NCBI GenBank assembly: GCA_951406725.2
Contig: OX597818.1
Span: forward strand, 14,570,001 to 14,634,000
DNA: 64,000 nt
DNA from: Octopus vulgaris
Lineage: Eukaryota
Direction: 5' to 3'
The first letter of the stretch is position 1, and each line of letters begins with the position of its first letter. Positions 1,908-60,627 of this stretch are shown piece after piece. The translations under genes and the position numbers were made by a program. Below the pieces are notes generated by a model. It saw only the letters and a list, made by a program, of their open reading frames with translations. It did no database searches and was not told where the DNA came from.

Positions 1908-4790
1908 TGAGAAAAAAGTCGTCAGAATTTTGGAAAAATATCCTTTTATTTCATTATTTTTAGCTCTTTCGTTCATTTCTCGAACTTGTCAAATAAAATT
2001 TTGTGAATGTACAAATCCATTATGCAAACGAAACCACAGCAACAAAAAATACGAGGAGATATACTCCTAATACCTTTGTGCCCTTTAATACCCAGTTATG
2101 TACGGGATGGCATAGATTTCATCCAACGTATCCCTCCCTCTGCACACAAGGTACTATACTCACAAGTTTTTATGTCAACAATCTCTTTACTAATATACCT
2201 CACACTTTAGGCCTAGAAGTAATCAAACACTGTGTAGAGAAACATAGAGAATGGATAAATGAACGCTTCAAGACTGATATCATCACCAACGCCACACGCC
2301 TAGTATTAGACAGATAAAGGACACGGCTATGGGTACGCGTTTTGCGTCCTCATATGCATTTTGGGGCAAATCGAATGAAGATCTAAGTATATTTAACAAT
2401 ATACTGAACGCACTTCACGTATCAATCAAATTCACGACGGAATCCAGTTGCAATGAGCCACTATTCCTGAATATCCACATAAAAATACAGAGTTCCACAG
2501 TCACAACAGACATATTTTACAAAAAACTGACATACAACAATTTTTATATTTCTACTCTTGCTATCCATCACACAGCAAAAGAAACATCCCATTCAGCATG
2601 GCAAGACGCATCTGTGCTATACTGACGGACTCCAAAATACGTGAAATCCGACTCAACGAACTCAAAGGCTCCCTCACAATGCAGAAACGCATAGGATTAA
2701 TTAATGAAGGAATTAAAAAGGTGATGAAACTGAACATCACCCAACTACAGACACCTAAGGGAAAAGTTAATGAAAACACGATTCCGTTCGTTAACACACA
2801 CAGTCCTGGAATAAACAACATCTTTCACGCCATAAAATCGAACTTTCCTATACTCCTACAATGCCTCAAAATGAAAAATCTGCTTGAAAATAAACACCTT
2901 ACAGAATAGCAGACGCCAACCAAAAGATCTTTAAAAAAATACTTCACAAGGGTAAAATTCAAATCAAAAAATTAATCAGAATTCTTAGCAAAAGAATGTG
3001 GAGATAGATGTGGAACATGCAACAACATCAACAACTTCAAATACTTGGAAAGTGGTTCCCACATAAAATTCAACAGCGGATCCCTTTTCAGAATAAATGC
3101 AGGTATGAACTTCAAAACGCAAAATCTCATATACTGTACTAGCATTAAAGACCCGTCGTTGCCGGGTCATAGAGCTAGTGCATATATATATGTGTATATA
3201 TATGTGTACATATTACATGTACATCTACATATATATATACATCTACACATAAAATACAAAATACAAAGTTATATCTTGATATCGCTAGTGATAACAGACA
3301 ATAGTCTTTTCTTTAATTTATTTTTTTATTATCCATCTGGACTATTCCGTTTCTGCACGCTAATTTTATTTTTAATTTATTCCCATCCATGTGAAACCAC
3401 TTATTCAAGTTCAAATCATTGATGCAATTTTATACCAATTGCTATTTTTATTTATGTTATGTTACGATTATATTATACTTTAGTTTGATTTTAATTATTA
3501 CTTACTACATATAATTCAATTGTTATTATTATTTTTATTGTTAAAGTGAAAGTATCTGACATAAAATAGAGAAACGTTTTTGTTTCACTTTTAACACGTA
3601 ATACTGAAATAGTGGAGAAGATATGATATTGCTATGGGCTCGCTCTAGGCAAGATGTTGAAATGAATTTTTTTTTGCCCATGAAACTACATGGACCCTAA
3701 GTAAGGCATGTATAAAATTTGAATGGAATTGGTTGTGTAGTTCTCAAATTTTAGGGAATCGTAGAAGAGAAGATATGATATTGCTGTGGGCTCGCCTTAG
3801 GCAAAAAGTTCAAAATTCTTTTGCCGATGACACTCCCCGGACCCTAAGTAAGGCATGTGTAAAATTTGAATGAAATTGGTTATGTAGTTCTCAGGTTTTA
3901 GGGAAACACACAGACAGACAGACAGACACACATTCTCAGTTTTATATATATATATAAAGATTACCTGCCCAAACTGCAAAGAAAATCACATTGGCGAAAC
4001 AAATAATTCCCTCTGCCAACGTGCAAGGATCCACAGGCAACAAATCCGACAAGAGCACTTAAGCAAGATTTCATTAAGTAAGCATCTGGAAATATGCAAC
4101 GACGGAAAATTCAAAATTTTTCCCTTTTATAAATATGCACGAGACGATCTGTAATACAGAAAAGCAATAGAACTACATTTCATCAAAAAATTCTCTCCAA
4201 AGTTGAATGTTTGGAATGGGAGACAGTACATTTTGTATTCTAAATATAACTCAACGAGAAGAAAAAATAAAGAAGAGGGGAAAAAGAGGAAAGGAGAAGA
4301 GAGAAAAAAGACTTCCAGTGATGACACCGCACCTTTTTTTTTTTTTTTGAAGAGGTCATTATCCTTAAACCCATTCCAATACAATGGTTAATGACTAAAT
4401 AAATAAATGGTGAATAGGAAGGGGGATACACCTTCTCTCTCTCTCTCTCACTCTCTCTATCTCCCTCTACCTATGTCACTATCTGTCTGACTATCTATCT
4501 ATCCACATATCTATCTATCTAGCTAGCTATCTATTTATCTAACTATCAGCCTATCTACCTACATATATTTCTATATATCTATCTCCATTATCATGGAACC
4601 TCACCCCCACCAAAACAAACAATGCTCTCTTCTTCCAAACAAAACCCAAAAAAACATGTTTTATATAAATGAACAAGTTGTTTGTACATTCACAAAATTT
4701 TATTTGACAAGTTCTAGAAAGGATCGAAAGCGCTAAATAATAATGAAGAAATAGAAAGACTTTTTTCTAAAATTTTGACGACTTTTCTCA
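1908..4790 (+). mobile_element. Penelope-like retroelement (decayed RT + GIY-YIG) with inverted terminal segment
   Basis: RT fragments LTSFYVNNLFTNIPH, GTAMGTRFASSYA and IKFTTES. GIY-YIG NLIYC|ITCPNCKENHIGET...ELHFIKKFSPKLN. 1908-2015 is the reverse complement of 4681-4790. Confidence 0.9.
3139..3960 (-). mobile_element. Non-autonomous Helitron inserted in the Penelope GIY-YIG
   Basis: Minus strand starts TC and ends with hairpin gacccggcaacgacgggtc then CTAG. A|T insertion site. Removal restores tac tgt att acc tgc (YCITC). Internal ~155 bp tandem duplication at 3615-3905. Confidence 0.88.
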
Positions 4791-5864: not shown

Positions 5865-5877
5865 GCACACAAAAGTT

Positions 5878-5985
5878 CTATAATTATAAGCATAATTATA
5901 ACTAGGGTTCAGCAAAATTGCTTCACCACGTACCGAAATTTAGAAATAGCAGTTAAATACTATTCCACTACCATAAGATATGATT
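5878..5985 (+). repeat. Fragment of the hairpin-arm family seen at 51946-52080
   Basis: ctagggttcagcaaaattgcttcaccacgtaccgaaatttagaaatagcag matches ~51975-52030. Confidence 0.7.
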
Positions 5986-21714: not shown

Positions 21715-22090
21715 CCTGTGCACAAAATACTCAGTGGTATTTCGTTTGCCTTTACGTCCTGAGTTCAAATTCCGCCGAGGTCGACTTTGCCTTTCATCCG
21801 TTCGGGGTCGATTAAATAAGTACCAGTTACGCACTGGGGTCGATATAATCGACGTAATCCGTGTGTATGTCCTTGTTTGTCCTCTCTGTGTTCAGCCCCT
21901 TGTGGGTAGTAAAGAAATAGAAATAGGTATTTCGTTTGCCGTTACGTTCTGAGTTCTGCCGGGTTGACTTTGCCTTTCATTCTTTCAGGGCGATTAAATA
22001 AGAACCAGTTATGCACTGGGGTCGAGGTAATCGACTTAAACCCTTTGTTTATCCCATCTATGTTGAGCCCCTTGTGATCAATAAAGAAAA
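21715..22090 (+). mobile_element. Two tandem family A SINE copies
   Basis: gagttcaaattccgccgaggtcgactttgcctttcatcc...gccccttgtg..aaagaaa occurs twice. Confidence 0.85.
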
Positions 22091-22348
22091 ATATATTTAA
22101 AAAATTACACGCACACAGACAGACAAACCTACACACACGCAAACATATGTATATATATGTATGTGTATATGTATGTATGTGTATACGTATTTTGGACACC
22201 CTGTATATATATGCACAAGCATACACACACACGCACACACACACGCACACACACACACACACATATATATGTATGTGTGTGTGTCTCTGTGTGCGTGTGT
22301 ATGTTTGTGTTTTTATGTGTGTGTGTATGTATGCATATCTGTTTATAT

Positions 22349-23344: not shown

Positions 23345-23488
23345 ATAGGAGAAGGAAAGATCCCGAGAAGGGAAGACAGAGGAAAAAAATCGCCAGCGGT
23401 ACTCAAATAAAGAAGCGCTGTGCTAGACACAAAAAGGGATAAATTCATGAAAGGAATGAAAATCAAAAACGTTTACTATCTCAGTTAA

Positions 23489-23579
23489 TCCTATACCGAC
23501 GGTTTCATCTGTATTAGCAAAAAAATCTGATTTAGCAAAGAAACAGAATTTATCTGTAAGGCCAGAATCATCAGTAGGA
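23489..23579 (-). ncRNA. Type I hammerhead ribozyme motif (intact core, GUA site)
   Basis: tccta-CTGATGA-ttctg...cagat-GAAACC-GTC-GGTA-tagga. Confidence 0.82.
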
Positions 23580-23727
23580 AGCCTTTGTAATCCTAGATGT
23601 ACAGACCGTTAGAAGCACATGTAAATCGATCTGTATGCCCTAACTTTTCAGACCAGTGCGCAGGGTATACAGATCGTTAGATTTGCATGTGCTTCTAACG
23701 GTCTGTACATCTAGGATTACAAAGGCT

Positions 23728-23819
23728 TCCTACTGATTATTCTGGCCTAAGCAGATAAATTCTGTTTCTTTGCTAAATCAGATTTTTTTGCTAAAACAGA
23801 TGAAACTGTCAGTATAGGA
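23728..23819 (+). ncRNA. Hammerhead copy with mutated core (CTGATTA)
   Basis: tccta-CTGATTA-...-GAAACTGTCAGTA-tagga. Confidence 0.65.
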
Positions 23820-24021
23820 TTAACTGAGATAGTAAACGTTTTTGATTTTCATTCCTTTCCTGAATTTATCCCTTTTTGTGTGTCTAGCACAGCGCTTCTT
23901 TATTTGGATGCCTTTTAATGTATTTCTATATGAATAATATATAGTCTAATGACTAATTCGTCTTTTATGCTGGGTCACTGGTAATAATAATTTATTTTTT
24001 ATTACCCTATTTACTATGTTC

Positions 24022-28719: not shown

Positions 28720-30700
28720 CAAAGATTGGTCCAGGACATGTCTAACTTAATAGCACCACCTGATAGGATTATTCGAATCCTGTTTAAGTCAAGTTTTGTT
28801 TAAGTCAAGTTTTGTTTAAGTCAAGTTTTGTTCAAGTAGTGAGTTCTTGTTGGGTGAGTTGTATCCAATTATGGGTGGCTTATCTGGTATTCTTTGAAGG
28901 AATCTATCCAGACTCCGTTTAAAGTTGATGGGATCCTTTTCCTCTTTGATCTCCCTCGGGACAATGTTAAATAGGGCAGGGCCTGTTGTGGAAAAGAAAT
29001 TATGTTGCAGTGTACATGTATGTTGTGATCTTGAATTGGGCAGGAGACGTATGGCCCGTGGTCCCAGTCTTGGATTAACCTTGAAGCTAATGTTATTGTC
29101 CTTTGGGCAAAGTTGGCGGTATATTCTCCACATCGTACAAATGATGTACCGCTCACGGCGACGCTCGAGGGAGTAAAGTTTCAAGGCTTTAAGGCGATCC
29201 CAATAATCGAGAGCAGCCATGCCTTCAATTCGTTTAGTGAGTGCCCTCTGGAGTGACTCAATCCTGGAGATGTTTTGTCTTGTATGGGGAGACCACAGTG
29301 GGAAGCAGTATTCAAGGTGTGGCCGTACAAAGGAGGAGATAAGTGGTATGATGACACCTTGTTCTCTGGACCGGAAAGTTCTTAAGATCCAGGAACTCAT
29401 CCTACGAGCTATATCGACATTCTTTTTGATGTGTGCACTCCAACTGAGATCGTCATAAACAATTACACCCAGGTCTCTGATATTGTTAGAGGCTGTGAGC
29501 GGTTCCCCTGAAGGAAGAGAGTATGGCTGTTTTAGTGAGGAATTTCTTCCAAAATGCATCAGCTCAAATTTTCCCTCATTCAGTTGCATTTTGTTTCTGT
29601 CTGCCCATTGACTCACAGCATATAGATCAGACTGGAGTTGAGTTCGGTCTGCTTCTTCATTGACGATTTGTGGAGCTTAGTGTCATCAGCAAATATTTTC
29701 ACTTTGCAGTAATGTACGACACTGGAAAGGTCGTTTATGTAAATTATGAAGAGTAGCGGACCCAAAACAGTCCCCTGGGGAACACCGCTGGTGACTTTTG
29801 CTGGGCTTGAGTGGACTCCATCAACTACAACATGTTGTGTTCTATTCGCCAGGAAATACTTAATCCAGTGTAGAACTTTTCCACGGATTCCAACATTTGC
29901 CAATTTTGAGAGTAGGATATTATGGTCTACCCTGTCGAACGCTTTACTGAAGTCAAGATATATTACGTCAGAGTTCGAACCTGTTCCCAAGGCTTTGAGT
30001 ACATATTCAATGTGGTGTAAGAGCTGTGTTAGACAGTCCCTGCCACAGCGAAAGCCATGCTGATTTGCATTTAGGAGTTTGTGGGTCTCCAGGAAGTCAG
30101 CTATCCTTGATCTTAACACTCTTTCAAACACTTTAATGATGTGGGAAGTGAGTGAGATTGGGCGATAGTTGACTGCGAGGGATCTGTTTCCCTGTTTGAA
30201 AACCGGGATGACCGACTGGGATAGAAACTGCAAGTTGGTGTCTACATTCCTTCAGGAGACTAGCGGGGAATCTATCAGGGCCTACAGCAGAGTAGTATTT
30301 GACCTCATTTATTGCTGCTACGATGTCAGTGGCAGTGAAGGTTATGTCTGAGATTTTATGTTGGGAGTCAACTTCGTTCGTTTCTCTTACGTCAATATCA
30401 GTGGGAACACTAAAGACAGAGCAGTATTGTTTTTGCAGTATTTCTGCCATTTCTTTAGCATCGTGTTGGGGAATGCCGTTATCATCAATCAATGGCCCAA
30501 TGGGTGAGACAGTGGTTCTATGCTTTTTTGCATAAGAATAGAACACTTTTGGGTTCTGTTTGATGTTTTTGATTACCCACTGTTCCTCCACAGCTCTTTG
30601 ATTTTCAATAGAGGTTTTCATGTTGGTCTGCAGATGAAGTTTTTCCAGCTCTAGTCTTTTCATTGTTGTTGGATGTGGATGTTGTGTGTGGGAATATTTT
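28720..30700 (-). mobile_element. CR1/L2-type LINE, 5'-truncated, RT split by frameshifts
   Basis: NYRPISLTSH, NQHGFR, YLDFSKAFDRVDH, SGVPQGTVLGPLLF, FADDTK, LYSLERRRERY (ORFs 30133-30663, 29613-30233, 28816-29616). Confidence 0.95.
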
Positions 30701-31374
30701 AATTCTGATAGAAAACCATATGGCTGGATCTAGAGCTATGATGACGCTTCACTTTCCATATCTTTAGCATGTGGTGATCCACGATATTTAACATTTTGAA
30801 TTTATTCATAACACCCATTTTTGCAGATATGCTTGGGGGTGCGGCCAGTTCCCGGGACTCCAGATACATATTCATCACTAGCTTCAAAGTTTTTTTTTTC
30901 TTTTGCGAAACAAAGAAAATTTCTATAAAGTAATGTGTATTTGCCAATAGAGTAGAATTTGTTTTTTCACTTATTTATTCTTTAGAAAGGTTTCTCTTCA
31001 GGACTTCAGACAGCTGAAATTTTCTATGGATATTCTGTGTGCGAATATAATCTGAATAGAAGCAAAAACGAAAATAGTTTTTAAAAGATATTGAAGACCA
31101 TAAGAACTGATAGCAGCTATGCAAATTCATTTCGTTTAATCCCACCAAAGACATTACTAAGCCGGGAAGTTTATCCATACCTCTATTATTACTACGTCTG
31201 GGGCAGATAAGCTGACCGTTTTGCTAATCATAAGTTTTTAAAATGAGTTCAAGAATTAAAGATTAAGAATTTCGTTACCATAAAATTACTTTTCTTCAGA
31301 ATTAAGTGTCACTTTTATAAGATCCTGGAGGCAAAGAAGCGCCACAAATGATTCATAATAAAAATAATAATAAT

Positions 31375-41790: not shown

Positions 41791-42870
41791 CACGTTGATT
41801 GAATGACATCATCAGTTTTTAAGTTTCATTGAATTACGATGAAAAGAAATAACAAATGAGATAGCTAAGTTTAGCAAAGAAAGTCAAACCTTCAAGCATA
41901 ATTTTAGCAAACACAATGCAATATGTGAAAGAATTATTTTAGTGATTAACTGGCACCGAAATTTCGCTGGTATTTCAAAATTGTTGCACGAAAGTTACCA
42001 GCATGTATGCTCGTTTCAAACAGATATATTCTCAGCCACCTATTGTAGCCTTTAGACGGAATAAAAATATGAGATCTATTGACCTCTGTTTCTGACTCAA
42101 AGAAAAGGATCATTGGCGCATCTGCACGCTGTACCTTGAAAGACAGCCGCAAGAGAGGTAAACCTTGTTCAATATGCAACAAGAGTCAAATGAATTGCAC
42201 CAGGAATCATAACAGAAATGTTATGATTTATACAGAAGGTGGAATATGCAGAGATTCCCATTTGATGTACGCGGCAGAATGCACGAAACACAACTTGATT
42301 TATGTTGGTTTACAACAGAACAATTAAACAAAAGATTTAATGGGCACAGATTGGACGTCAGGCACATTAACAGTAGTTCGACAGCACTTGCTGAACACAT
42401 TATTTCAAATAGCTGCAATTTTGAAAAAGACTTGAAAGTGCTTATTCTCAGAAAATATTCTGAATCTATTTCCCTTTCAATACTCAAAATGCATGAGGAG
42501 AAATATGTTTACGTGTTATTAACATCACGCCCTAGAGGAATGAATAAAATGACAGGAGAATATCAAATTTACGCAAAACTGTTTGACTGAATATTCTTAT
42601 TTTTCTTTTCCTTTTTTCTTTGCTTTTTCCTGATTTTTTCTGTCTTTTTCTTTTCACCTGTTATAAAATTGAAACTTAAAAACTGATGATGCCATTCCAT
42701 CAACGTGTGGACTCTAGTTGCTCCCGTTCGTACTTTAGATCTGAATTTTATGATTTTGAACTTTAATCCCTTTTTACTTTGAACTCGACAAAGACAGGCT
42801 TGCTATCGAAATATCATTCAACGAATAAAATATCTATTGCAATTGCACCGCACTCTTCGTCGTGTCTATA
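41789..42870 (+). mobile_element. Penelope 3' fragment (GIY-YIG) with 40 bp inverted terminus
   Basis: MYAAECTKHNLIYVG/FTTEQLNKRFNGHR...ALAEH...RGMN. 41789-41828 is the reverse complement of 42670-42709. Confidence 0.85.
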
Positions 42871-51134: not shown

Positions 51135-51680
51135 TGGTTTCAAATTTTAGCACAAGGCCAGCAAATTCGGGAGGGGAGTAGGTTGAGTACATAGACCGCA
51201 GTGCTCAACAGGTATTTACTTTATCGAACCCGAAAGGATGAAAGACAAGGTGGACCCCGACGGAATTCGAACTCAGAACGTAATGATGGACGGCATGCTG
51301 CTAAGCATTTTGGCCGGTTTGCTAACGATTCTGCCAGTTCGCTGCACAAGGCCTGAAATTTGGTGCAGGGGACTAGTTGATTGCATCGACCCCAGTGTTT
51401 CGCTGGTACTTAATTCATCGACCCCGAAAGGATGAAAGGCAAAGTCGACATCGGCGAAATTTGAAATCAGAACGTAGTGTCAGACGAAATACCTATTTCT
51501 TTACTACCCACAAGGGGCTAAACACAGAGAGGACAAACAAGGACAGACAAACGGATTAAGTCGATTATATCGACCCCAGTTCGTAACTGGTACTTATTTA
51601 ATCGACCCCGAAAGGATGAAAGGCAAAGTCGACCTCGGCGGAATTCGAACGCAGAACGTAGCGGCGGACGAAATACTGTT
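51135..51680 (-). mobile_element. Three stacked family A SINE copies
   Basis: Repeated cgacccc gaaaggatgaaaggcaaagtcgac...gaattcgaac. Confidence 0.85.
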
Positions 51681-51849
51681 ATTTTTTCTATATATGCATA
51701 TGCTGATATATAACCTACGCTGGACTCCTCATTCGCATAATCACCGAACCTGGAGCTTAACTATAGACTGTCCATAGCATTACTTGACACCTTTGGGTCT
51801 TCTTGACACCATTACCTCTCATAACCTATATATATATATAATTTATCAA

Positions 51850-52470
51850 TTATAATAAAGGGTAAAATTAATTAATTAACTCGTAATTAATAATTCCACC
51901 AAGTAAAATTCGGCATGAAAAAGGACCATTTTTCGGTAAACTTAAACAATATTTTATAATTACGAGTATGACTATAATTAGGGTTCAGCAAAGATTTGCT
52001 TTACCACATACCGAAGTTTAGGAATAGCAGGCAAAGAACCTTAGCTATTTCTTCTACTATAAGAAGAGACTCCCGGACAAAGCAAAATATTAGAAATAAC
52101 CCACGCAGACAGAGAGGAAAAATAACGAAATTCCCTCGGTATTTGATTACCTGTGGACGCGTTTCGGAATTAGATCGGTATGAAGAATATAAAAATCATA
52201 CTTCACCCAAACATTTTCCTCTTCAGCACAGGATTCCCCGATATTAAATTTGAGAGCACTGGAAAAATTGAACATACCTATCCAATTCAAAACAGTATCA
52301 GACAGATCATATTCAACGTCCAGTACCGGCGAGTTTTGTCCGGGAGTCTCTTCTTATAGTAGAAGAAATAGCTAAGGTTCTTTGGCTGCTATTTCTAAAC
52401 TTCGATATGTGGTAAAGCAAATCTTTACTGAACCCTAATTATAATTATACTCGTAATTATAAAATATTGT
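51850..52470. mobile_element. ORF-less fold-back element (135 bp arms) with a hammerhead in the loop
   Basis: 51946-52081 is the reverse complement of 52335-52470. Flanked by (TA)n. Confidence 0.85.
52150..52232 (-). ncRNA. Type I hammerhead ribozyme motif (intact core)
   Basis: cctgtg-CTGAAGA-ggaa...ttcc-GAAAC-GC-GTC-cacagg. Confidence 0.9.
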
Positions 52471-52481
52471 ATATATATATA

Positions 52482-52840
52482 TCACCATGATCACCTTGAC
52501 CGACCAGTCCGTCGAGCGTCCATTTGACACCGCTGGTCACAGCACGCTGTTCACTCCTCGCTGGATCGCGCCTTTCTCATCCACGTGATCCCAATCGTCC
52601 TCCTGAAATCGTAGCTCCACCGTCGCGGAGGCCTTCCGGGTTGTCGTTTCTGCTCGCGCGGGTACCACTCGACAACTGCGCGGGTCCACCGATTATTGGT
52701 GAGCCGGGCGACGTGTCCAGCCCATCTAAACTTGCTGCGTGTATATTCTGCGATGACATCCCTCATGCCGGACTTCTCTCTGATGGCCTCGTTACTGATG
52801 TGCTCTCACAACGAGATTCCAAGCATTGACATTTCCATAT
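52482..52840 (-). mobile_element. RTE-clade LINE 3' end
   Basis: SKFRWAGHVARLTNNRWTRAVVEWYPREQKRQPGRPPRRW. Confidence 0.92.
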
Positions 52841-53277: not shown

Positions 53278-53498
53278 CAGCTGGCAGAAACGTTAACACG
53301 CCGGGCGAAATGCGTAGCCGTATTTTGTCTGCCTTTACGTTCTGGGTTCAAATTCCGCCGAGGTCGACTTTGCCTTTCATTCTTTCGGGGCCGATGAATT
53401 AAGTACCAGTTACGCGCTGGGGGGCGATGTAATCGACTTAATCCGTTTGTCTGTCCTTGTTTTTACCCTCTGTGTTTAGCCCCTTGTAGGTAGTAAAG

Positions 53499-53502
<4 letters not shown>
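53278..53502 (+). mobile_element. Family A SINE with target-site duplication atatatattgcgtgc
   Basis: Duplication ends at 53277 and 53541. Confidence 0.88.
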
Positions 53503-53536
<34 letters not shown>

Positions 53537-56189: not shown

Positions 56190-57940
56190 GTCAAGCAAAT
56201 TGTATTGATAATACAATTTCGAACTGAAAATCAGTCAATGTTGAAGAACCCCGTTGTAAATAATATTCATTGTTTCAATTTTTATTGGTGTTGAAATGAA
56301 TAAATTTTTGCTGCTTCCATCTGGCGAGCAAGCAGTGGGAGTAGCATGTAGTAGAGAGGTCAAGTGCAACTACCTTGAGTGAGTAACCCTGAATTTTTTT
56401 AATTGAAATACCAAAACTTAGTTTGACTGGAAACTGCAGCGTCATAATTTCTAATGGAACATATGTAGGTACAAGAGGAATTTTTGAAATAAAGACATTT
56501 TCTCCTTTGTTATGATTGTTGCTTGTTGGACATGGGACTTCATGGAAGTAACAATTAAGTGAATTCCATTACACAGGTGAGGTGGTCAAGATTCCCAAAC
56601 AACATAATGGGAGCACCCAGTTTTAGTGTCATGTTATGCAGTGCCATCCTAATAGGTTCAAGTGTGTTCAGAAATTCAACAGTGTACTGAACAACCTGAT
56701 TTTGATCGACTGTTGTCATTTGATCGAAAAGTCATTTCTAATGTATCTATTAACTTTTGAAGAAGTTCATGATTGAGTTCATCAACCATTTCATTAGTTG
56801 GAGCTAGTATAGCTCTTTCACATAGTCAGTTTACATCAGTGTAATTGACATATAAATTATGAAGTACTTTATCCATAATATCCCTTAAAGAAAGTATCAT
56901 TTAATCGCATGTAATTTCATGTAGTTGAAGTCTTGATTTGAATGATAATATCCTATTATCAATCTTAAGAATCTCGTATGATCACCTTGTAGAAGTACTC
57001 TGATGTTGCCTGTAAAATGAAGTTCTTTTACATTTCTTCGAAGGTGCGATTTTTTGAAGCAGGCATTAACCTCATGAGCTTTTGATCCTTTGGGGATAAC
57101 TAACAATGTTTGACGAAAATCTCCTCCAACAAGAACTGATTTTTATCTTCTTGGAGGGTACGGTCAAGTAACTTTGGAGCTCCACAATGTGACAGTGAGC
57201 TCTTCCCAAGCAATGAGGCAAGTTTGTTAGAGAACTGTTGCCCTGGCACAGTTTTTGGAAATGTTGCACATTTTCGATTCTTTCCTTGCAAGGTTTAGAG
57301 GGAGCTTGAACATGGAAGGAACAATTCTCCCCCCATTGAGGAGAGTAACTACAATACCAGAGGAGGCAACACTGGAAGAAGGTTAAATTTTCTTTATTTC
57401 CATTTGGGATTGCAGGTAAAAGTGACAAAAAGAGCTGTTTTTTTTGTATGTCCTGACATATGTCATAGCATCTTGTGTTCGTGCAAATATCGAGGACAAC
57501 TTGTGAATAATAATGGGAGGATTATAAGTTGCCCCATGATTTTATATCACTATCTGTCCTCAGAGCATCTTGGAGAGGGACTTTGGTTTTATTGTTACGA
57601 ATGTAGAGGAGATACTGACTCTCAACTATAGCATACATATCAACCAGGTATAGCTGAAATAGATCAGGACACATGTGTAATTGATTTGATTGTTCTGGTC
57701 TTAACATCAGTTGATAAGAATAGAAGTCATTTGACGACACCTTTTTGTTTATAATTGGCTCTCCTGTTGCAGGTTCAATCTGTGGAATATTGAAATGATA
57801 CCCATCTTGTCCATTCCACAAAATAAAAGGATACTGGAGAGCATCATAAGAGGGATGAGTCTCTGAAACATGTTTAAGGTTGTTATCTCGAGCAAGAATG
57901 AGAATATCACGATTTTCATGGGGATCACCTACTATAAGGA
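56190..57940 (-). pseudogene. Helitron Rep/PIF1 helicase remnant
   Basis: DALQYPFILWNGQDGYH...FYSYQLMLR...FQLYLVDMYA, DFRQTLLVIPKG..EVNAC.K.S.L, RAILAPT, LKLGAPIMLL. Confidence 0.88.
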
Positions 57941-59908
57941 TGGTTAATCCATTAGATGTAAGCTCGTTAAAATGGCGTAAAATGCCCTTTATTATAGTTT
58001 ACTATAGACGTAGCGAACGGGAAACACACGCTCACAAACATAGAGACACTGATAGAATTGAAAACAGCAAAACGTGTACACACGGAGTTCAAGCGAAGCG
58101 TACTGTTGTCAGTATAGACGCAAAACACACTTTCTGTAACGTAGTTATGCTATAAAACTTTTTTTTGTGAATATTTCCAAAAGAAATATTCCAGCGTCGG
58201 AAAGTCACCAATTTAGTAAAAATTACTATGCGTCACCAATGTAACAAAGTACAGAAAGTCAGCATTTATGTGGAACATGTACTAAATGTTATTAAATGTT
58301 ATTAAATTCAGGATTAAACGTAACGGTGAAGTCAAGCCCGAAGAAAATTCAATTTTTCTTATAAAAATAATTTATTATTTTACAATTTTTAAACGAGCGC
58401 TGTACAAAGTGTATACGAAGGAATATGTTGTTGTTGAAAACATTAAGTAATTTAAAAGATTTGCTGAAGGATATATGTAGCAAAACATAAATTAATTTGA
58501 CATTACTATATATTCTAACTGTGTAAGGTTATAGGCTGTAGAATAAATACTGACTAATACTGACCAACGCAAAAATGTTGCGCGGCATTGAATACTAACA
58601 GTGTTAAAGCAGCGTAGTAGGAATACGACAAGGACTCTAGGACTGTTAAAACAGCATTATCTTCAAACTGGTTATAAGGACTGGAATAACATTTCTGTAA
58701 TTATATTGAAAGAGCCGCTAAGGCTTTCTACTTCGCCAAGTTTCCGAATTTGTTATAATAACCAGAATAACATTTTTTTTCAGATATATTTGCGAGTGTT
58801 TTGAGTGCTGTTAAATGAGCCAAATCTTCACGCTGGTTATAAAAACCAGACAAATATTCCAGCACATAAGTAGTGATAATCGTTAATCCTGTTTAAAACG
58901 CAACTCTCCATGAGGAAAAGGAAAACCCAAACAGTGATACTTCAAAGTGAATGCTGATGTTCGTTCAACATCCAGGCCGTAACTAAATTAAACTCTTTCA
59001 AAATCGATGCGTTTCACTGTTGGCGGTACGATTACATACATATAGTAAGACAGACACTCACAGACATACATTCAAGCAGACCTCAAGCCTATCGCTTTCT
59101 CTTTGTGTGTCTGTTTCTGTATTTAGATATGTGTGTGAGTGAGTGAGTGAGTGAGTGAGTGAGTGAGTGAGTGCGTGTATGTGTGTGTGAGTGTGTGTCA
59201 GTCGTCACACCTTCACATACACTCACACATATACTTCTTGATCATCGGCCTACCAAAGGTAACGATCGCACAAACACACACAAATTGACAGACACATACA
59301 CAGTCGGACAGAACATGTGACGTCGTCATCATCGTGGTATAAAATGTTATTTACGGTAGTTAACTTATAGAAAGATCATAATGTCAAACTTTTACAATGC
59401 AAATATTTAAACGAAAATAAAGTTTATTTGGTAGCCGAAAGATTACTGAATCTTTTGATACCCCATACGTCAAAATCGACAACTAAGTTTTCGAATGTAT
59501 AAGGAACATATGCACACACATATACACAAACTCTGCTTTATTTATATAGAAATACTAGTAATGCATCCCGGCGTTACCCGGAGGTTATGATCTACAAGCA
59601 CATTGTATTGTTTGCTCTTTTCTTATGGGAAGAATTGGCACAGCTGATATATAGTTAATGGAATAATGGAAGCTATTGTTTGTTTAATAGTGAAAGGCGA
59701 GGGTGAAATTTGCATGAAAGTGCATTCTGTTCTTAAGAAGGATCAGAGACTATGTAATGTTTCATCGTATACGAGGAGATTAATGCGATTTTGTCCAGAA
59801 ATTACGTTTTCGATATTTTAATTTTCCCCTTATCCCCACCGCAAATTTGTAACTTTTTTCGAATTTTTTGTCATCTACATAGAAAAGTACAGAGATTACG
59901 AATCTGGG

Positions 59909-59978
<70 letters not shown>

Positions 59979-60176
59979 ATGATAAAATAGGGTAATAATA
60001 AATTATTATTACCAGTGGCCTAGCACAAAAAACGAATTAGTGATTAGACTATATATAATTCATATAGAAATACAATAAGAGGCTTCCAAATAGGAAAGCG
60101 TTGTGCTAGAACACAAAAAAAAAGGATAAATTCCCGAAAGGAATGAAAATTAAAAACGTTTACCATCTCAACTATT

Positions 60177-60246
60177 TCCCAGACCGACGGTTTCTAACTA
60201 TTTCCAGCAAAAAAGTATTTGCTGAAGGCCAGTTTCTTCAGTGGGA
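60177..60246 (-). ncRNA. Type I hammerhead ribozyme motif (intact core, GUC site)
   Basis: tccca-CTGAAGA-aactg...tagtta-GAAACC-GTC-GGTC-tggga. Confidence 0.85.
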
Positions 60247-60379
60247 CAGCCTTTAGAATCCAGACATACATCCTCTCTGTGGCCGGGTAAAATCTGCGTC
60301 TGCGCAGTGGTTTGAAAAGTTAGGATTTACAAACCGTTAGGCCTACATGTGGATCTAGCGGTCTGGATTCTAAAGGCTG

Positions 60380-60449
60380 TCCCACTGAAGAAACTGGCCT
60401 CCAGCAAATACGTTTTTGTTGGAAATAGTTAGAAACCGTCAATCTGGGA
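60380..60449 (+). ncRNA. Hammerhead copy with broken stem III
   Basis: tccca-CTGAAGA-...-GAAACCGTCAATC-tggga. Confidence 0.6.
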
Positions 60450-60558
60450 AATAGTTGAGATGGTAAAAGTTTTTAATTTTCATTTCTTTCGTGAATTTAT
60501 CCTTTTTTGTGTGTTCTGGCGCAACGCTTTCCTATTTGGAAGCCTCTTATTGTATTTA

Positions 60559-60627
<69 letters not shown>

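Follow-up and report, generated by a model that had tools for sequence, protein, structure and literature searches.

Animal non-LTR retrozymes and the Penelope-like elements (PLEs) are the closest described systems to the locus analysed here. Published accounts give animal retrozymes a typical monomer of ~300 nt, within a range of 150 to more than 1000 nt and with a GC content under 45% (PMC7229834). PLEs have been proposed as their mobilisers, and their route back into genomes is likewise set out as a proposal (PMC7229834; 10.64898/2026.07.22.740005). PLE copies are described as 5'-truncated and arranged in partial tandems, with a 5'-truncated copy lying inverted beside the 5' end, a one-sided tail and (TA)n targets (PMC8557442). 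A PLE protein is reported to nick both strands of AT-rich DNA and to start at two internal RNA sites matching the tail; for the anole PLE, insertion is retained when the ribozyme is mutated, and RNA that has not been cut serves as the main substrate (PMC11167929). Hammerheads with a palindromic helix III are described as needing dimers, their monomers cutting poorly (PMC4209133, PMC7229834). None of the titles and abstracts retrieved on retrozymes describes the octopus families treated below or a twin-end footprint for retrozymes; the supplements of one preprint (10.64898/2026.07.22.740005) may list such families. The main text of a recent octopus repeat annotation (PMC13282606) contains neither the word 'ribozyme' nor 'retrozyme'.

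The locus lies near 52 kb in a 64-kb stretch of the Octopus vulgaris genome (the window hereafter), a host genome of 2.8 Gb that is rich in microsatellites. It is best explained as two back-to-back 5'-truncated copies of a hammerhead repeat in (TA)n, probably laid down in one event by a PLE RT/endonuclease. Positions in the ~600-nt repeat unit are counted from the first base 3' of the predicted cut. From the left, a (TA)n run (51827-51840), judged from its sequence to be the likely target site, precedes the main copy (51843-52335, minus strand), which is 5'-truncated, runs through unit 422-601 and then 1-313, and ends at site B. This copy (L001 1262-1754) is 94% identical to the unit of locus L007. 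The right arm (52335-52473, plus strand) is an inverted, more truncated second copy, covering unit 73-213 and ending at site A, and a further (TA)n run, again recognised by sequence, follows at 52470-52482. The left arm (51943-52081, minus strand) is simply unit 73-213 within the main copy; it is not terminal, as the main copy extends 100 nt beyond it.

The inverted arms are thus 139 nt long, 95% complementary and separated by a 253-nt loop, in good agreement with the 135 bp and ~250 nt of the original prediction. Seven differences distinguish the two arms of the 51843-52473 insertion, none of them shared, which amounts to ~3% decay per arm. The arm fragment previously placed at ~5880-5985 was found at 5876-5959 (minus strand): an older short 5'-truncated family copy, 77-82% identical to the arms and 84% to unit 119-204, that ends at site A by a TA/CA run. 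The designation "hairpin element" did not hold. In the 30 genomic sequences that match the loop best, similarity continues through the left arm, often 100 nt further, and this particular pair of arms is present at the 52-kb locus alone; the hairpin thus belongs to the 52-kb insertion and not to the dispersed repeat. To note, the left flank (51681-51826) is itself repetitive, with matches in L008 and L088, and ends ...CATAACC before (TA)n, resembling site B of a ~960-aa PLE family (...TTTTATAACC). The insertion may occupy the TA tail of a different element.

Within the loop, a type I hammerhead occupies 52150-52232 on the minus strand, and every element announced for it (intact core, palindromic ACGCGT stem III) was located by pattern scan. 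Helix I pairs CCUGUG (52232-52227) with CACAGG (52155-52150). The CUGAAGA core starts with C3 at 52226, and C17 is at 52156, with the predicted cut between 52156 and 52155. Helix II pairs GGAA (52219-52216) with UUCC (52169-52166) around a 45-nt insert, with GAAA following; the insert forms a long extension of ~14 pairs (52170-52215) that displays compensatory changes. The ACGCGU palindrome of helix III and loop 3 (52157-52162) is predicted to pair between ribozymes. The type I core is complete (C3 U4 G5 A6 N7 G8 A9, G12 A13 A14, A15.1-U16.1 and H17), and the predicted fold beyond helix I consists of a 2-bp extension and an internal loop. Scanning both strands of the window for type I motifs returned this one and a single AT-rich, chance-like match. 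The adjective "textbook" is not deserved, as no hammerhead family of Rfam matches 52060-52340 at E<=10, for which the long helix II is a likely reason; the best 150 of the 220 Rfam matches over the whole window are all microsatellite-driven. A possible intron after helix I (AG/GTAATC ... TTCTTATAG) was discarded, its by-eye translation giving no frame.

The loop belongs to an abundant family. Its relatives at 83-96% identity amount to 44 matches from the 40 scored of 987 candidates. An exact 20-mer of the arm region has at least 182 genome matches against none for the reversed control, and one of the ribozyme 3' half at least 188 against two; the hammerhead pattern itself occurs 35 times against none. 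Copies starting further upstream are preceded by the unit's own 3' end, which identifies the unit as a head-to-tail repeat of 575-603 nt, with a GC content of 32-33%. Copies exceeding one unit (e.g. 789, 818, 1003 and 1157 nt) are partial tandems of up to about two units. Two-ribozyme tandems, with the ribozymes 574-603 nt apart, were found at L083/L133, L134 and L135; these loci are older, with changes at 10.1. A hard 5' boundary of the long copies at the cut site had been considered and was rejected, since L083, L134 and L135 cross this site twice. A local micro-duplication at L057 (C21:38885365-38885453) repeats the ribozyme 3' half three times in tandem, at 33 bp per copy. In contigs of four runs guessed to be RNA, the arm sequence is covered and the ribozyme part hardly so; among the contigs listed from other runs, none spans the exact junction of the 52-kb insertion.

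The repeat family is devoid of protein-coding capacity. An RT + GIY-YIG ORF was sought in the unit and in the family copies and was not found, and the longest open frame among 150 family matches is 159 aa, none of them running into a coding frame. A ~96-codon open frame exists in the ribozyme sense; its Pfam search gave no match and its protein search matched only the repeat family itself. A coding role was rejected on account of its neutral evolution (synonymous fraction 0.25).

These features liken the octopus family to animal non-LTR retrozymes as published (PMC7229834; 10.64898/2026.07.22.740005), with which it shares a non-coding low-GC unit, a type I hammerhead and a head-to-tail arrangement, and its weak palindromic helix III is like that of axolotl HHR_Amex1 (PMC7229834). 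Head-to-tail units each bearing a hammerhead are seen at the family level only, the 52-kb locus having one ribozyme. It differs from the retrozymes compared in several respects: the unit is 575-603 nt long, above the typical size though inside the published range, as against ~220-390 nt in coral, mussel and axolotl retrozymes, it mostly occurs as 1-1.4 units per site rather than in arrays, and its helix II has a 45-nt extension. Endonuclease-plus PLEs resemble the family in bearing a hammerhead upstream of their 3' ends, but they carry an RT/GIY-YIG frame that the octopus family does not. With the PLE hammerheads described in PMC4209133, it shares the palindromic 15.2-16.2/loop 3 segment, the G10.1-C11.1 pair and an occurrence as dispersed single motifs or as opposite-strand pairs 100-700 bp apart; helix I is a canonical 6 bp, while helix II is far longer than the 6-8 bp reported there. 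By analogy, the octopus family would function as animal non-LTR retrozymes do, with a PLE as its mobiliser, its circles and cleavage being putative.

Conservation of the ribozyme was analysed in an alignment of 54 rows (A1), from which L016, L024, L090 and partial ribozymes were left out. The whole core (11 invariant bases) is kept in 46 of the 54 rows, and the mean minor-allele frequency is 0.019 in the core versus 0.121 elsewhere; N7 varies freely, and H17 is never G. Helix I is 95% paired, with two-sided changes in three of its six pairs: U-A/C-G in 16 rows, G-C/A-U in 22 and C-G/A-U in 4. Helix II is 93% paired with two-sided changes in one of four pairs, and 92% of the cells of its extension are paired, 4 of 14 pairs having changed on both sides. 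Cells with a two-sided change number 82, above all 500 shuffles and the slid controls, a count inflated because cells represent related sequences and not events; about eight rows were found by a core-containing pattern. Pairs with a two-sided change number 10, which is not above the shuffles (155/500). We read this as past selection having acted, to judge from the alignment, on the RNAs that founded the subfamilies and not on the 52-kb copy.

The footprint of insertion was established on 60 distinct loci, after dropping 33 loci duplicating a place and L024, a segmental duplicate of L023; these last two represent one insertion with common flanks on C25 and C22. Outward 3' ends fall at site A (unit 180-222) in 43 cases, at site B (305-332) in 29 and elsewhere in 12, and TA/AT-rich sequence follows 58 of the 72 site-A/site-B ends. 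Conversely, the 5' ends of the copies are widely variable. Twenty-four loci are two-armed, a fraction that does not estimate the genome since loci were picked by similarity to the loop or an upstream piece, by patterns and by paired matches. They comprise 17 with one end at each site (AB), one AA and six with an unclassified end. AB thus accounts for 17 of the 18 classifiable two-armed loci, against 48% expected (binomial p=4e-5 versus independent choice). The tail between A and B measures ~105-130 nt, as compared to the 30-40 bp described for PLEs (PMC8557442, PMC11167929). Taken together, the 5' truncation, the partial tandems, the inverted 5'-truncated copy, the two 3' ends and the AT-rich target correspond to the insertion anatomy of PLEs.

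The arms lying near both ends, with TA on both sides, might also suggest a DNA element of the MITE or fold-back type, with TIRs of 139 bp, a TA target and the ribozyme as cargo. Since the arms are not terminal, most copies are armless, and the two-armed loci each have arms of another length and position, this explanation is hardly credible. The head-to-head junction at 52333-52335 displays an overlap of 2-3 nt, such as could be left by a template switch, if a local inverted duplication had added the right arm to an already inserted copy. The right arm nevertheless ends at site A in a (TA)n of its own, in keeping with the AB rule of 17 of the 18 classifiable two-armed loci, which makes such an origin highly improbable. 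Rare variants common to both arms amount to 14 in L082, 5 in L042 and 4 in L093, and the arms are each other's nearest relatives in 7 of 17 loci. The arms of the 52-kb locus have no rare variant in common, and 5 of 44 other copies are equally close. With mutual nearness in 7 of 17 loci and nothing shared at the 52-kb locus, a single RNA molecule as the source of both arms is not established.

As to the enzyme, the octopus genome harbours young, intact PLE-type families. The first, present in many near-identical copies, has a 775-aa frame matching RVT_1 and GIY-YIG and, upstream of it, a 557-aa frame. The second is defined by a ~960-aa frame related to the 775-aa one (E=3e-7); its Atlas look-alikes bear HTH_animal and GIY-YIG on 25-99% of members. 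In this ~960-aa family, a hammerhead whose helix II is long and whose helix III is palindromic stands before the frame and again at the 3' end; there it is followed by two fixed 3' ends, separated by 177 nt and each leading into (TA)n in terminal copies. The order hammerhead, two 3' ends, (TA)n is therefore the same as in the ~600-nt unit. At L138 and L148 (C8:21.32 Mb and C15:43.25 Mb) lie intact-looking ~960-aa PLEs with a 2.4-2.6-kb 3' region, a hammerhead with an 87-nt helix II and the two fixed ends. The window holds decayed PLE coding fragments at 2457-3422 and 42213-42590 (both plus strand), the first of which leads to the 775-aa family. The DNA of the unit matched none of 29 PLE-bearing loci (16 of the 775-aa and 13 of the ~960-aa family), the best match being 18 nt long (E=0.04); the autonomous partner was thus sought in these two families and not found. 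A candidate full-length PLE between same-strand matches 3.5 kb apart (C8:79.467-79.471 Mb) was rejected, as it proved to be a duplicated fragment interrupted by another retroelement.

A pathway can be proposed from these observations. Its starting point is the non-coding unit itself, found in partial tandems of up to about two units and with a hammerhead core and helices conserved between subfamilies. Tandem loci would be transcribed, and two ribozymes would pair via ACGCGU and excise a monomer, to be ligated into a circle like the monomers of other animal retrozymes. A borrowed enzyme would then nick both strands of (TA)n and prime cDNA at two fixed internal points of the RNA, site A at ~184-218 nt and site B at ~307-322 nt after the cut, one per strand. 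At the 52-kb locus, the cDNAs would have stopped at ~493 and 140 nt and been joined head to head, generating the 139-bp arms; the ribozyme would owe its place in the loop solely to the short copy having ended before it. The result would be a dead-end copy predicted to cut weakly, in trans and in a short co-transcriptional window, owing to its one ribozyme and to the missing unit 318-421.

The nature of the template bears on a competing explanation, in which the unit would have arisen from a PLE pseudo-LTR by simple deletion and would be copied from linear tandem transcripts that stay uncut, with the ribozyme a passenger and no circle formed. This is possible, if doubtful. Most insertions hold one ribozyme in less than 1.4 units, an open frame of ~96 codons survives in the unit, and the anole PLE provides a reported precedent of ribozyme mutants that insert and of uncut RNA as the main substrate (PMC11167929). 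Such a derivation is harder to reconcile with a core and helices kept through subfamily divergence, with the failure of any of the 150 matches to run into a coding frame (159 aa at most), with the unit's own 3' end lying upstream of the unit, and with the want of pLTR homology to an autonomous PLE in the two protein families sampled. A circle and an uncut tandem transcript both fit all the evidence gathered here. A version of the retrozyme-like pathway with a PLE enzyme dimer nicking both (TA)n strands and copying a ribozyme-made circle from two fixed points, always one per strand, and with a folding switch via unit 318-421 that silences truncated copies, is rather unlikely in this complete form.

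The folding of the 52-kb copy depends on the length of the transcript. As a monomer, GAAACGCGUC (helix III) did not fold, pairing only between two copies; the model allows at most 1-2 bp closed by a CGCG loop. In a two-copy cofold, a double hammerhead forms via ACGCGU at -47.1 kcal/mol versus 2 x -20.1 kcal/mol, 7 better than the monomers, and the dimer mechanism put forward in the original prediction is therefore favoured by modelling. The ribozyme was also said to be free to fold, lying outside the arms unlike those of the 23-kb and 60-kb elements. This is correct relative to the arms, and the cores of these two elements do lie inside theirs (C3 at 23574, and at 60241 and 60385, respectively). 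It fails for the molecule as a whole: helices I and II have a probability of ~1 in the 101-nt construct proposed originally, which drops to ~0 in the complete insertion and already in the 253-nt loop; their collapse is predicted after the transcription of another 20-40 nt. They stay at or above 0.94 while the transcript ends at 52148-52140; helix I is at 0.99 with a 3' end at 52140, falls to 0.02-0.28 by 52130 and is at most 0.05 by 52100. In the predicted folds, this collapse comes from pairing between the core and the bases immediately 3' of the cut, the blocker in the truncated copy being a pyrimidine-rich stretch at ~52135-52095 (minus strand). This competitor is missing from the 101-nt construct, on which activity would come out too high.

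For 31 longer copies, the consensus fold has the blocker stretch paired with unit 325-410 and the hammerhead helices in place. The main copy, starting at unit 422, does not have unit 318-421. Adding this segment rescues folding in three of five single copies, and the long-range helix displays little covariation; its role as a folding switch is a prediction of the modelling. The circular unit is far more stable than shuffles (z ~ -6). For the two-ribozyme tandems, the double-hammerhead probability reaches 0.92 in L134 with short flanks, decreasing to 0.00 with longer ones, and is 0.00 in L083.

Based on these folds, the 52-kb ribozyme is predicted to cut poorly, as an aged dead-end copy. Its choice as the best single candidate for activity is doubtful, given one ribozyme, a helix III of 1-2 bp, ~3% arm decay and the existence of two-ribozyme tandems elsewhere. 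That it might be an active ribozyme used by the host, or a hairpin RNA serving as processing signal, siRNA or editing substrate, appears very unlikely. A read-through transcript would form the 139-bp duplex, and the core is fully intact with helices at 0.94 or more for ends at 52148-52140; but intact cores are common in the family (46/54) and need no selection, the seven unshared arm differences fit neutral decay, and a single ribozyme bears a helix III of the dimer type. The 52-kb locus itself is an ordinary decayed copy. The A/B end rule and the (TA)n targets provide a genomic footprint that points to PLE enzymes and offers a substrate for an in vitro test.

Other repeats populate the window. 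The fold-back insertions at 23405-23910 and 60060-60560, with hammerhead-like cores inside their arms, display no DNA similarity to the 600-nt unit; a helix III of 3 bp is possible for the 23-kb core. A short repeat, very abundant and internally duplicated, occurs at 51344-51676, next to the insertion, and at 21737-22098 and 53320-53503, and its contig depth in the putative-RNA runs is far above that of the ribozyme family. On the minus strand, a broken LINE-type reverse transcriptase (RVT_1) spans 28816-30729, and a Helitron helicase-like fragment lies at 57522-57998.
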